64,000 nucleotides of DNA from Escherichia coli (GTDB taxonomy: Bacteria; Pseudomonadota; Gammaproteobacteria; Enterobacterales; Enterobacteriaceae): assembly GCF_045037415.1 (NCBI RefSeq), contig NZ_CP173438.1; one strand, 5' to 3'. Below, piece after piece: positions 45,001-54,000 of this stretch. The position numbers were made by a program. The number at the start of each line of letters is the position of its first letter. Positions within the stretch are counted from its first letter, which is position 1.

Positions 45001-48000
45001 AAATCAACGCTCACTATTTTGACAAAAAAGCAGAAGATTATTTCTTCAATAAGTTTCTGTTGTCTTTTGATCCCTCAACCCAGCAATGGAGTTACGCTGG
45101 CGAATCTCCCTGGTACGGAACGGCTGGTGCGGCGGTTGTGAATAAAGGTGATAAAACCTGGCTTATTAATGGCGAAGCCAAACCCGGATTGCGAACGGAT
45201 GCCGTATTTGAACTTGATTTCACCGGTGATAATTTAAAATGGAATAGGCTTGCTCCCGTCTCATCACCAGATGGCGTCGCTGGCGGTTTTGCGGGGATAA
45301 GCAATGATTCTCTTATATTTGCCGGAGGGGCCGGATTCAAAGGTTCACGAGAAAATTACCAGAACGGTAAGAACTATGCGCATGAAGGCCTGAAAAAATC
45401 ATATAGCACTGATATTCATCTTTGGCATAACGGGAAATGGGATAAATCGGGTGAATTATCGCAAGGTCGGGCCTACGGAGTATCATTGCCCTGGAATAAT
45501 AGTCTATTGATTATTGGCGGTGAATCTGCAGGCGGCAAAGCGGTGACGGATTCAGTTTTGATCTCTGTGAAGGATAATAAAGTCACAGTACAAAACTAAC
45601 GCTTCAGGGCCCCGGTAAAGGGCCCTGCTATCAATTTGTCATTTCAATTACGCGAAAATTATATGAACGCAATAATATCGCCCAATTATTACTATGTTCT
45701 TACCGTTGCTGGTCAGTCTAATGCCATGGCGTATGGCGAAGGACTGCCATTACCGGACAGGGAAGATGCGCCTCATCCCAGAATCAAACAATTAGCGAGA
45801 TTTACGCATACGCATCCCGGAGGCCCGCCATGTCACTTTAACGACATTATTCCACTGACTCACTGCCCACACGATGTTCAGGATATGCAGGGTTATCACC
45901 ATCCTCTGGCAACGAATCATCAAACACAGTACGGCACCGTTGGCCAGGCACTGCATATTGCACGGAAATTACTGCCCTTCATTCCTGATAATGCAGGGAT
46001 TCTCATCGTCCCGTGTTGCCGTGGCGGATCGGCTTTTACCGCGGGCAGCGAGGGGACATATTCAGAACGGCACGGAGCCAGCCATGATGCTTGTCGTTGG
46101 GGAACGGATACCCCGCTCTACCAGGATTTAGTCAGCAGAACGCGAGCCGCACTGGCAAAAAATCCGCATAACAAATTCCTCGGCGTATGCTGGATGCAAG
46201 GCGAATTTGACTTAATGACCAGTGACTACGCGTCACACCCTCAACACTTTAATCATATGGTTGAAGCCTTTCGTAGGGATCTAAAACAATTCCATTCTCA
46301 GCTTAATAATATTACTGCCGCGCCGTGGTTTTGCGGCGATACCACCTGGTACTGGAAAGAAAATTTCCCTCATGCGTATGAAGCTATTTATGGCAATTAT
46401 CAAAATAATGTTTTAGCCAATATTATTTTCGTCGACTTCCAGCAACAAGGTGAAAGAGGACTGACGAACGCGCCTGATGAAGATCCGGACGATTTAAGCA
46501 CGGGATATTTCGGTTCAGCGTACCGGTCAGCGGAGAACTGGACGACGTCACTGCGAAGCAGTCATTTCAGCGCGGCAGCCCGTCGGGGGATTATTTCTGA
46601 CAGATTTGTAGAAGCAATTTTGCAGTTTTGGCGCGAAAGGTGAGCGGGGAGTTTATTCATGGGGGATGTCCTTGTCCATTCCCAGAGCAGACAACAAAAA
46701 ACAAATGAGATCAAGGTAATATCTCTTCACTTGCGGGCTCGAACAGCAGGCAATTGCCAATATAATAATCTGGCACAAGGGTGAAAAACGCGCACCGCAT
46801 AAACCGTTGTTATTGCTTACAGATTAGCCGGATGCCTTAATAGACATCCGCGCCTTTTCGGTTATGGCTCGGAAATCTACGAACATCTACACAGTTTACT
46901 GGAACGTTTTGGGCCACAGCGTTCGCAGCACCGTCCTGATATGCCGTTCTGGCGATTATAAGTCGACGGATTCTGGCAAATAGACGATGATGATATGCTT
47001 AATGATGTTCAAAGAAATTAGGCCATTATTATATTATTGCTTGCATTTTCTTTCATTCCTAAAAGCACCCGCCATTAATCCCAGGCGCATTATGCAAAGG
47101 AAAATGATTAGGTAAACAATAAGATTTATAATCAGGAAAGGCGACTCGCAATAAAACGGAAAGTCGCCTTAACATTGGTAAAATATGCCCTTTACTACTC
47201 CTGTATCATGAACGGCTCATCACATTTAAAGCTGACGTTGATCCAGACTACCATATATTGCCTTTATTTCATTTTTTACGCCTTCGCCACGGTACACCAA
47301 AGACGTATCGTATCGTTGATACTTATCTTCCCGTGCAGCACTGAACCAGTTAAAAGATCCGACACACAGCAGTTCTTCATCCTCAATCACAATTTTGCTG
47401 TGGACACGATTAACCAATTTCGTAGCGATACCCATCTTATTGAGCTTTTCAACAGCATCATTCAGCAGATGTTGTTTCTCCTGACGCTTATCATCATCGA
47501 CATGCGCTATATTGCAGTTTTTATCCGTCACCACGGTAATATCAATGCCCCGGGAACGGGCCAAAGCCATTGATGCCAGAAATCCCGTTTGCTCCACTTT
47601 TTGCCAAGATAACCAAGGGGAAATAATCGTTATTTTCTTTTGAGCTCCGGCAAGAGTCTTGTTCAAAAATCCATCATGCTGCTCCACACCATGCAGCGTT
47701 GAAATTTGTGTATGTGCGGAAATTAAATCCTGTCGTTTCTGAAACTCAAATTGCAACGCATTATTATCTGAAGAAAAGAGATATTTTGCCAATAACCCTC
47801 GCGGCGAAAATGCGGGCTGCATCTCGATAAGGTCCATATCGCCAAATACCAGAAAACTATCTTTAGCGCGTGAGACAGCAACATTGAGGATACTGCTGTT
47901 GCTATCAAGAAACCTGCCATCTTCATGTTTTGAGTAGACAGGAGAAAAGAGAACAATCGCCCTTTCCGCCCCCTGCAAGGAGTGCACAGTCCCCACTGTC

Positions 48001-51000: not shown

Positions 51001-54000
51001 GGCCCGCAAATACCGTACAGGTATCGCTTCCCTGATGAGGTGGTGGTGTAAATCACCGAAACCGGGTCAGAGCAAAACGTGGGTTTTATTTGGTAAAACC
51101 AATCACGGCAAGCTCAGCGGCGAAATACTGTACCGGTTGGTGGGGCAAGGCAAGAAGCTGTTCCGCTGGCGGCTACCCGAAGGTAATCCCTATCTGAGGA
51201 CGGAGACCAGAAACACGTATACATCGCGCTTTACAGAAGTGGCAATGGCGTTCGCCAGCATTTAAATGGAGAGCCGGATGCGCTGAAAGGTGCACGTCCG
51301 GTTCGGGGAGGAGAGGCAGGGAAATAGTCCGACTACGCCCTGCCTCTTACTCTACTCTGGACGGGTAAGCGCTGGGCGTACCTCGCCGTTGTTCTCGACC
51401 TGTTCGCAAGAAAACCAGTGGGCTGGGCCATGTCGTTCTCGCCGGACAGCAGGCTTACCATGAAAGCACTGGAAATGGCATGGGAAACCCGTGGTAAGCC
51501 CGTCGGGGTGATGTTCCACAGCGATCAAGGCAGTCATTATACGAGCAGGCAGTTCCGGCAGTTACTGTGGAGATACCGGATCAGGCAGAGTATGAGTCGG
51601 CGTGGAAACTGCTGGGATAACAGCCCAATGGAGCGCTTCTTCAGGAGTCTGAAGAACGAATGGGTGCCGGCGACGGGCTATGTAAGCTTCAGCGATGCAG
51701 CTCACGCAATAACGGACTATATCGTTGGATATTACAGCGCACTAAGACCGCACGAATATAATGGTGGGTTACCACCAAACGAATCGGAAAATCGATACTG
51801 GAAAAAACTCTAACTCGGTGGCCAGTTTTTGTTGACCACTTCACTTATACTCGCCAGGGATATGCAATTGAAGCAATTACCGCCACGATTGACTGGATAA
51901 AAGAGAACGGTTTTTCACTCATCAAAGCCGGTGTGAATCCGGAAAATACCCTTTCAAAAAAATTACTTATCAGGATTGGCTTCAATTTTTCGAGCATCGA
52001 AGATGGGTGAGCATATTTATGTTCTGGATTAAACAAAAGGAGAATAATCTCCCGAAGGGAAAAGCCGATGAGGCCATTTCAGGCGTACTTCAACATGCAT
52101 TCGTCAGTGTCATCTGCCTTTTCCAGTAAATGGGTTGGCATTCAATTTCCAAAGTACATCACACTTTTTCTACTGAAACATATCCCTCCTATAACTACGT
52201 GTTAATATTCGCTCCGTAAATACCTTTCAACTCAACCCGAGGCTTTGATGCTGGAGAATGTAATCATCCGATAATCAGTTCCCCGACCTTTTCAGGCCGG
52301 ACTGATTATCAATGCGCCGAAATCGAATGCGGACACCGCGGTGTGTTTGCACGTTTTGCACATGATGATTAAACAGGTTCTTCAGTATGAATTTATCCCG
52401 TCAGGAACAACGTACGTTACACGTTCTCGCTAAAGGTGGACGTATTGCGCACGTCCGCGATTCTTCAGGCCGCGTCACTTCCGTTGAATGCTACAGCCGC
52501 GAAGGGCTGTTGCTGACCGACTGCACGCTCGCCGTCTTCAAAAAACTCAAAACCAAAAAACTTATCAAGTCCGTCAATGGTCAGCCCTATCGAATCAACA
52601 CTACCGGGCTGAATAACGTTCGCGCTCAGCTCGATAATCGCTAAGGAGAGTTTCGATGACAGCACACCACTTCACTTTTCAAATCACAGATGAAAGTGAT
52701 GCCAGTGATATCCGGGAAGTCGAAACCCGCGCATTTGGCTTCAGCAAAGAAGCCGATTTAACGGCCTCTTTACTTGAGGATGAAAGCGCGCGCCCTGCGT
52801 TATCGCTGCTGGCCCGACATGAAGGCAAAGCCGTCGGGCATATTTTATTTACCCGGGCAACCTTCAAAGGGGAAATGGATTCACCGCTGATGCATATCCT
52901 CGCTCCCCTGGCAGTCATACCGGAATACCAGGGGATGGGCGTGGGAGGACGGTTGATACGCACTGGCATCGAGCACCTGAGGTTGATGGGCTGCCAGACG
53001 GTTTTTGTTCTCGGCCACGCCACCTATTACCCCCGACATGGGTTCGAACCCTGTGCCGGAGACAAAGGCTATCCGGCACCTTATCCCATCCCGGAGGAGC
53101 ACAAAGCCTGCTGGATGATGCAAGCACTCACCGCTCAGCCCATGAACGTGACCGGCCACATCCAGTGCGCGCAGGCCCTGATGAAACCGGAGCACTGGCG
53201 TGAATAACAATCTTGTTGTGCCCTTTTTAATGCTTAACCCAATAACAGGAATTAACTAATGGATATTCCACGTATTTTTACCATCAGTGAAAGCGAACAC
53301 CGCATCCACAACCCGTTCACCGAAGAGAAGTACGCCACGCTGGGTCGCGTGCTGCGCATGAAACCAGAGACCCGAATTCTGGACCTCGGCAGCGGCTCGG
53401 GCGAGATGCTCTGCACCTGGGCCCGGGATCATGGCATTACGGGGACTGGAATCGACATGAGTTCGCTCTTCACCGCGCAGGCCAGACGCCGCGCGGAAGA
53501 ACTCGGCGTCAGCGAACGCGTACATTTTATTCATAATGATGCGGCGGGTTACGTCGCCAATGAAAAATGTGACGTAGCAGCCTGCGTTGGCGCGACCTGG
53601 ATTGCCGGAGGCTTTGCCGGGACAGTCGAACTGCTGGCGCAGAGCCTTAAACCGGGCGGGATCATGCTCATCGGTGAACCTTACTGGCGTCAGCTTCCGG
53701 CAACGGACGAGATAGCCCAGGCCTGTGGCGTCAGCTCGACGACCGATTTTCTGACGCTACCAGGGCTTGTCAGCGCGTTTGACGACCTCGGCTACGACGT
53801 GGTGGAAATGGTACTGGCGGACCAGGAAGGCTGGGACCGATATGAGGCCGCGAAATGGCTGACCATGCGCCGCTGGCTGGAGGCCAATCCTGACGATGAC
53901 TTCGCCGCCGAAGTCAGGGCCGAGCTAAACATCTCGCCGAAACGCCACGTAACGTACGCGCGGGAATACTTTGGCTGGGGCGTGTTCGCACTCATCGCTA

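Follow-up and report, generated by a model that had tools for sequence, protein, structure and literature searches.

The ISEc52 copy that separates the yjhR and yjhZ remnants in the window, a 64,000-nucleotide stretch of Escherichia coli DNA (contig NZ_CP173438.1), very probably marks an IS-anchored deletion of 340 bp at an older junction of two genes that were already truncated, with later entry of a group II intron into the IS. Allele counts were taken over 5,426 complete genomes.

The element, which belongs to the IS3 family and is IS911-like, lies at 48323-51843 (+ strand). It is bounded by imperfect terminal inverted repeats of 27 nt (48323-48349 and 51817-51843; 78% complementary) whose ends begin TGAAGTGG, and it has both the 5'-TG...CA-3' form and, at 1,250 bp without the intron, the ~1.25 kb length of an IS3-family member. 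Overlapping orfA and orfB are also present: orfA (48395-48697, + strand) and the A6G -1 frameshift motif AAAAAAG (48646-48652, + strand) were read directly, comparison with an intron-less IS showed orfB (+ strand) to break off after 49084 and to resume at 51356-51813, and the DDE/rve transposase domain PF00665 was found in P0155, the protein containing the OrfB segment of the window. The boundaries of the element are as described in the first-pass annotation; owing to the group II intron in orfB, its span is 3,521 bp and not 1,250 bp. Its IS911 label holds in the looser sense of IS911-like: the element shares with IS911 a 1,250-bp length, orfA and orfB with the A6G motif and a closely similar OrfA sequence, but PGAP names it ISEc52, and the near-identity to the reference and common ISfinder/PGAP name expected of IS911 in the strict sense are lacking, as identity to it is 93.6-94.5% (~94% at the nucleotide level) for copies annotated 'IS911 family', compared with 97-100% for copies annotated ISEc52.

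A further difference is that this copy lacks the 3-bp target duplication usual for the IS3 family. The sequence to the left ends ...GTAGCCGA directly before the IS and that to the right begins CTTATACTCG, giving flanking triplets of CGA and CTT respectively and therefore no 3-bp direct repeat or target duplication. These flanks, together with the inverted repeats, bear out the earlier description of an IS lying between two truncated genes with no target duplication. The missing duplication is explained by the 340-bp deletion described below and is a trait of this single copy, providing no ground for exclusion from the IS3 family.

The extent of the deletion is given by the IS-less strain CFSAN064035, whose flanks are 100% identical to the window over 3.2 kb per side (one mismatch in total) and directly enclose a further 340 bp (L002 3201-3540). 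The left breakpoint falls at 48322/48323 of the window (L002 3200/3201), up to which the yjhR remnant matches the IS-less allele at 100% identity, and the right breakpoint at 51843/51844 (L002 3540/3541). The first three nucleotides of the IS (TGA) also occur in the ancestral sequence, which makes the left breakpoint ambiguous by 3 nt and gives a deletion of 337 or 340 bp; neither reading yields a target duplication. Within the 340 bp, homology to yjhR runs to L002 3331 (98.7% identity to the intact gene) and homology to the GNAT acetyltransferase gene (yjhZ) starts at L002 3408 (99.5% identity to locus L011 and 97% to Enterobacter loci). The segment thus carries on the authentic yjhR and GNAT sequence, which makes the IS-less state ancestral and the IS-bearing allele derived by deletion. 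The IS-linked event removed 131 nt of yjhR, a 76-nt filler and 133 nt of the GNAT gene, or ~44 codons from each remnant. A simple insertion whose 3-bp duplication has since mutated away is refuted by the 340 bp of ancestral sequence missing between the flanks, and CGA and CTT differ at all but chance positions; the IS is otherwise complete with both ends, but nothing else speaks for such an insertion, and its probability is negligible.

The IS-less allele, including that of K-12, places the truncation of both genes before the arrival of the IS. In this allele 762 of the 1,171 codons of yjhR and 47 of the 158 codons of the GNAT gene are already missing, and the end of yjhR and the start of GNAT are joined via the 76-nt filler (L002 3331/3408), the same older junction being found in K-12. 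No source for the filler was found among the comparison loci or in the rest of the window. A 7-nt GGCCACC shared by the filler and the IS repeats, noticed by eye, was judged to be due to chance. The statement in the first-pass annotation that K-12 carries both fragments without the IS proved accurate, and its proposal of an IS-mediated deletion stands as far as the absence of a simple insertion and the loss of 340 bp are concerned, but not as the cause of the two truncations, which are seen in IS-less alleles. A single large IS-mediated deletion that truncated intact helicase-PLD and GNAT genes together would agree with both remnants adjoining the IS ends and lacking their 5' parts; it is nevertheless very unlikely, given that the two genes are already truncated and 76 nt apart in IS-less genomes, from which the IS allele differs by 340 bp only. 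Intact yjhR is present at the locus in 13 of the 5,426 genomes and intact GNAT (158 aa) in 11, and the two sets are disjoint, so that the full ancestral interval cannot be reconstructed. The neighbours of intact yjhR are a P4-like satellite or other defence genes and not the GNAT module, which also argues against a single large deletion.

The yjhR remnant (47226-48322, - strand), delimited with PADLOC, Pfam and PGAP, comprises the C-terminal 364 codons and stop of a 1,171-aa MkoC protein. It retains the helicase C-terminal domain and the PLD nuclease domain (AAA_12, PLDc_2 and PLDc in Pfam), has lost the N-terminal ~69%, and is labelled by PGAP as 'helicase YjhR, missing N-terminus'. The intact orthologue in strain 2017-02-2CC matches positions 1-1135 of the 1,136 in the PADLOC MkoC profile (1,468 bits), so that the intact 1,171-aa protein at the yjhR locus is, by profile match and a preprint describing YjhR as a fused Mokosh (MkoA-MkoB) protein (bioRxiv 10.1101/2022.12.12.520048), predicted to be the Mokosh type II defence protein MkoC. 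The same evidence favours the earlier guess that the intact helicase-PLD gene would be a defence gene. The window copy, in contrast, is limited to profile positions 785-1135 of 1,136 (E=1.6e-153) and lacks the complete single-protein MkoC architecture of ~1,140 aa, in which an N-terminal region is followed by an SF1 UPF1-like helicase core and, at the C-terminus, a PLD nuclease domain; judged from its sequence, it cannot be a working MkoC. Selection on the remnant is possibly relaxed, as dN/dS between truncated and intact alleles is 0.28, a value based on very few differences (8 synonymous, 8 non-synonymous), compared with ~0.10 between two intact alleles. The K-12 copy of yjhR is also frameshifted. 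Matches annotated 'DEAD/DEAH helicase' (H78-H82), considered as longer yjhR alleles, were found to be the same remnant split by the IS66-family element ISEc23.

On the other side of the IS, the GNAT remnant (51844-52010, + strand), identified by translation and by its full-length homologue P0125 (158 aa), consists of 2 nt, the last 54 codons (51846-52007) and a premature stop (52008-52010) that is absent from P0125. The count of 54 codons is exactly that previously reported. PGAP calls here a 47-aa 'GNAT family N-acetyltransferase', and the complete acetyltransferase fold of ~158 aa is not encoded. A scan for a hybrid outward promoter reading from the right end of the IS into the GNAT remnant and topAI gave no candidate, with counts at or below shuffle expectation.

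Among the 5,426 complete genomes, ~1,280 carry the IS-less allele, ~390, including ATCC 25922 and ST131 strains, carry the IS at these exact junctions, and one other carries ISEc52 with the intron at this site. The ~390 IS-bearing genomes are assumed to have a single origin on the basis of three evenly sampled matches, all of them 100% identical. In strain 1447, which has this IS too, another 274 bp have been lost immediately next to the same end of the element, which indicates that deletions anchored at this IS end recur; the new flank again begins with CTT. This nested loss, beginning precisely at the IS end, argues against an IS-independent 340-bp deletion, for instance by replication slippage, into whose new junction the IS was later inserted exactly. 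The TGA common to the IS end and the ancestral sequence does indicate that short coincidences occur at the site, but a later insertion would still have created a 3-bp duplication, of which there is none, and a joined-flank search over 60 sampled rows, with a query not specific for a direct IS-less join, gave no single-piece full-length match; such a sequence of events is highly improbable.

The starting point of the proposed history would be a 5'-truncated yjhR (- strand) and a 5'-truncated GNAT gene (+ strand) pointing apart with the 76-nt filler between them, a junction that would be the scar of an earlier deletion or island replacement that took both 5' ends. In one lineage, the 1,250-bp ISEc52 would have entered this junction and an IS-anchored deletion of 340 bp would have followed, leaving one IS copy whose flanks derive from two different original sites and which consequently has no 3-bp duplication. 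The deleted allele would then have spread to the ~390 sequenced genomes.

For the molecular route of the deletion, we infer one of two possibilities: strand transfer from the IS end to DNA nearby, or insertion of a second copy, oriented like the first, at a distance of 340 bp and then homologous recombination between the two IS copies. IS3-family elements transpose by a copy-out/paste-in mechanism, which by itself does not delete DNA flanking the donor, and a one-step deletion is therefore not textbook chemistry. The second route, a sub-variant of the preferred IS-anchored deletion, has a probability a little short of even. It involves two same-orientation ISEc52 insertions 340 bp apart, with CGA and CTT duplications, and RecA-dependent recombination that drops one copy together with the 340 bp. 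It predicts the observed product, a lone IS bordered on the left by sequence from one insertion site and on the right by sequence from the other, it fits copy-out/paste-in transposition, and the CTT flank of the nested deletion in strain 1447 is that expected from a new copy duplicating a CTT target, although this coincidence might also be a 3-nt microhomology. Against it, neither a two-copy genome nor one with a single copy and the 340 bp was found among the 5,426. Simple-insertion intermediates, with the IS and its 3-bp duplication at one breakpoint and the 340 bp retained, were sought with chimeric queries (IS at the left site plus 340 bp; 340 bp plus IS at the right site), and none was matched at a coverage of >=80% in these genomes. 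The alternative that ISEc52/IS911-type elements themselves catalyse one-step, right-end-anchored deletions, transferring an IS end into nearby flanking DNA, is rather doubtful. The basis for this reading is the nested 340-bp and 274-bp losses, both with CTT flanks, and the lack of any intermediate in the 5,426 genomes; if true, it would add a deletion route to those usually attributed to copy-out/paste-in elements, and CTT may be a preferred target.

The last step in the preferred history of an IS-anchored deletion would be much later and confined to one ST131 sublineage, in which an intron of the E.c.I4 type, by then widespread in E. coli, may have retrohomed into orfB of this IS copy, or may have entered by recombination with another intron-bearing copy of the IS. 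The intron (2,271 bp; 49085-51355, + strand, sense within orfB) was identified with Rfam and by comparison with an intron-less IS. It begins with GTGTG at 49085 and ends with AC, and RF00029 matches 51269-51355 with 64.9 bits (gathering score 40). Its boundaries are precise by reference to ATCC 25922, where the IS at this site has no intron and the sequence aligns to 40700-49084 and 51356-58400 of the window. The intron thus has the features of a bacterial group II intron of the E.c.I4 type, namely a 5' GUGYG, domain V/VI, an RT/maturase gene and insertion in the sense strand at a specific site. The gene for the intron-encoded RT/maturase, ltrA (49756-51265, + strand), is frameshifted, its frame in the window being split by an extra T at 50364/50365 (a 1-nt insertion with NZ_OY019088.1 as reference), in which it differs from E.c.I4; the sister genome has an annotated ltrA. 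E.c.I4 is reported to home into the IS3-family transposase genes of IS629, IS911, ISEc16 and ISEc31 (PMC3522654), and the location of the window intron, sense-oriented at a specific site of an IS911-like orfB, is in keeping with this habit. The same insertion point is used in many IS copies. The intron was found in 1,873 of the 5,426 genomes, and a K-12 fragment, ykfC, is 99.6% identical to it (nt 1-1765).

All parts of this arrangement are of known kinds, and the locus is a case of ordinary genome decay common to ~390 sequenced E. coli. Laboratory-evolution and comparative studies have reportedly catalogued single IS copies with mismatched flanks left in E. coli by adjacent deletion or two-copy recombination. 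The present case resembles such IS-associated deletions in its single complete IS, the absence of a target duplication, the loss of inter-site DNA and the non-essential, decayed location; nothing in it differs in essentials, the deletion being small (340 bp) and the IS also invaded by an intron.

Beyond bookkeeping, the significance of these findings is small. The IS-linked loss explains the differing lengths of the yjhR and yjhZ remnants in K-12-type and B2-type strains, and the IS with its intron at this site is a rare typing marker for one ST131 sublineage. The intact yjhR alleles of 13 genomes are ready material for testing a chromosomal Mokosh II system in E. coli. The leuX-nanS boundary of E. 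coli appears as a graveyard of defence genes, with remnants of Mokosh II and of a phosphorothioate-sensing endonuclease and a TopAI toxin module, and would have decayed stepwise, from an old deletion, through IS entry and the 340-bp loss, to further nibbling in some strains and the entry of an intron into the IS.

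Between 47226 and 52010 of the window, a 3,521-bp mobile element (48323-51843) separates two gene remnants: an open frame of the helicase-PLD gene yjhR on the minus strand, which has its end at 47226 and extends to 48322, and a short coding remnant of the GNAT gene yjhZ on the plus strand (51844-52010). The element is bounded by imperfect terminal inverted repeats (48323-48349 and 51817-51843), and directly beyond them lie ...GTAGCCGA (left side) and CTTATACTCG... (right side). The bordering triplets are therefore CGA and CTT, with no 3-bp duplication, exactly as the first-pass annotation had described, and its figure of 54 codons for the GNAT remnant was also exact. 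No hybrid promoter was found at either IS junction.

A query joining 700 nt from each flank was searched against 5,426 complete genomes, 1,280 of which contained both halves at one place, with 337-340 bp of additional spacing compared with the query. The IS-less strain CFSAN064035 (L002) matches the window's flanks at 100% identity for 3.2 kb to either side (a single mismatch overall) and carries 340 bp between them (L002 3201-3540); K-12 has the same arrangement. The left part of this segment continues yjhR up to L002 3331 (98.7% identity to intact yjhR), and its right part extends the GNAT gene, starting at L002 3408 (99.5% identical to an E. coli-like contig in which GNAT is longer, 97% to Enterobacter loci). 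The segment is not foreign DNA and, since it continues both genes, the IS-less state is ancestral and the IS allele has lost 340 bp, or 337 bp if the TGA that the ancestral sequence has in common with the IS end is counted as flank. The IS-linked event removed the older yjhR/GNAT junction together with 131 nt of yjhR and 133 nt of GNAT. The deletion scar proposed in the first-pass annotation is borne out by these 340 bp, present between the flanks in IS-less genomes and absent from the window; IS-mediated deletion, its proposed mechanism, was right in kind but accounts only for the last small step, since neither gene is complete even in the IS-less allele. The overall observation is thus confirmed and its interpretation upheld in part: this is a real IS-linked deletion of 340 bp, superimposed on an older truncation.

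The intron-less IS allele at the yjhR site was found in 390 of the 5,426 genomes, by searching with the intron-less IS plus 300 nt of flanking sequence on either side and counting hits that covered at least 80% of this query; three of these hits, sampled at even ranking steps (H114-H116), were 100% identical to the query. Chimeric queries modelling a simple insertion, at the left or the right breakpoint, into an allele that still has the 340 bp had no match at 80% or higher coverage in the 5,426 genomes, so we infer the route of the deletion, which may have been strand transfer from one end of the IS to neighbouring DNA, or else insertion of a second copy in the same orientation and recombination between the two. 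Losses anchored at the right IS end recur, because strain 1447, with the same IS at the same site, lacks a further 274 bp directly at that end (L017 4551-4553; equivalent to window 51847-52120), which takes out the entire GNAT remnant and leaves a new flank again starting with CTT. A 2.86-Mb contig encodes an open frame (P0155) fusing ISEc52 OrfB (...DQGSHYT) straight to the GNAT remnant (RQGYAIE...), implying a further variant, one that would have lost the right-hand portion of the IS at a TTATAC microhomology.

Alignment with the equivalent locus of ATCC 25922 divides the element into a 1,250-bp IS and a precise 2,271-bp insert at 49085-51355. An IS is present as first annotated, but it is not a plain IS911: PGAP names it ISEc52, and IS911-annotated copies are about 94% identical. 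Its orfA (48395-48697) and A6G slippery motif (48646-48652) were read directly. In the window and in ATCC 25922, fimB is interrupted by the ISL3-like ISEc53 with an adjacent ClbS/DfsB-family gene (window about 40855-42303; L001 156-1604).

The insert, inside orfB, is a group II intron of E.c.I4 type, with a 5' start of GTGTG, a 3' end formed by domain V/VI (Rfam RF00029, 64.9 bits, 51269-51355) and a reverse transcriptase/maturase gene, annotated as ltrA in a sister genome. It is taken to be E.c.I4 from its 99.6% identity to the K-12 ykfC fragment and from a published survey, according to which MG1655 contains a single E.c.I4 fragment and the homing targets of this intron are transposase genes of IS629, IS911, ISEc16 and ISEc31 (PMC3522654). 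The IS with its intron had a full match in only one of the 5,426 complete genomes, ST131 isolate NZ_OY019088.1, which is identical to the window across 17.7 kb except for one base. The rarity of the intron in the yjhR-site IS copy (one other genome of roughly 391 complete genomes bearing that IS), set against copies with at least 80% of the intron covered in 1,873 of 5,426 complete E. coli genomes, suggests that the intron arrived recently in one ST131 sublineage, either by retrohoming or by gene conversion between IS copies. An extra T at 50364-50365 (GGTTCTC in the window, GGTCTC in all other copies examined) divides the reading frame of the reverse transcriptase/maturase in two (49756-50385 and 50357-51265); this is either a genuine mutation that inactivates the gene or an error of sequencing.

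The older truncation is visible in IS-less alleles, including K-12, where the two remnants diverge around a 76-nt filler (L002 3332-3407) that is absent from the window and had no match in the other loci compared. The IS-less allele keeps only the last 1,228 nt of the 3,516 nt of intact yjhR (1,171 aa), and retains codons from about 48 onwards of the 158-aa GNAT, with an early stop that has no counterpart in the 158-aa homologue. This arrangement bears the mark of an earlier deletion, or replacement of an island, in which both 5' ends were removed. The dN/dS between truncated and intact yjhR is 0.28 (16 differences), that between two intact alleles is about 0.10, and the K-12 remnant is frameshifted too, all of which is consistent with a pseudogene in decay. 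The yjhR remnant of some IS-less strains is split by the IS66-family ISEc23 (L004 3554-5970, WP5-S18-ESBL-09), and PGAP labels one half a PLD-domain protein and the other a DEAD/DEAH helicase.

The yjhR remnant matches positions 785-1135 of the 1,136-position PADLOC profile of MkoC, of Mokosh type II (E=1.6e-153). An intact orthologue matches positions 1-1135 with 1,468 bits, and a preprint cites 'the yjhR protein' to illustrate the fusion of MkoA and MkoB in a Mokosh protein (bioRxiv 10.1101/2022.12.12.520048), so the intact helicase-PLD protein, which the first-pass annotation had suggested checking for a defence role, is predicted to be a defence gene product. Intact yjhR adjoins nanS at this locus in 13 of the 5,426 genomes. 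Strain 2017-02-2CC has it immediately after a P4-like satellite that is integrated at tRNA-Leu; between the integrase and ogr/delta genes of this satellite (L010 7476-12363) lie a hypothetical gene and a gene for an RNA-directed DNA polymerase of 961 aa, which is probably a defence-associated reverse transcriptase located in the variable region of the satellite. In strain N1420 it lies among methyltransferases, transposases, an intact phosphorothioate-sensing endonuclease and an HNH endonuclease. The window itself has, between nanS and yjhR (about 46754-46959, plus strand), a frameshifted remnant of a phosphorothioated-DNA-binding restriction endonuclease of SBD-HNH type, which brings the dead defence genes at this boundary to two; the intact 873-nt version and the neighbouring HNH endonuclease gene are found in N1420 (L009 11485-13144).

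Intact GNAT occurs in 11 of the 5,426 genomes, other than the 13 with intact yjhR, so the full ancestral interval cannot be rebuilt by the proposed comparison of intact genes, no genome among the 5,426 having both. All components are of known kinds, annotated in public genomes. In the 11 genomes, intact GNAT lies within an island with a TopAI module and further defence genes. Enterobacter-type loci (L013/L014 8001-16424) encode intact GNAT, TopAI, YjhQ, YjhP, a zinc-ribbon protein and a VOC protein, with a full-length 1,172-aa MkoC at the far end of the island (72.5% identity to E. coli YjhR), and another locus, L012, has a BREX system in place of this MkoC. The TopAI module seems to travel beside a variable defence slot.
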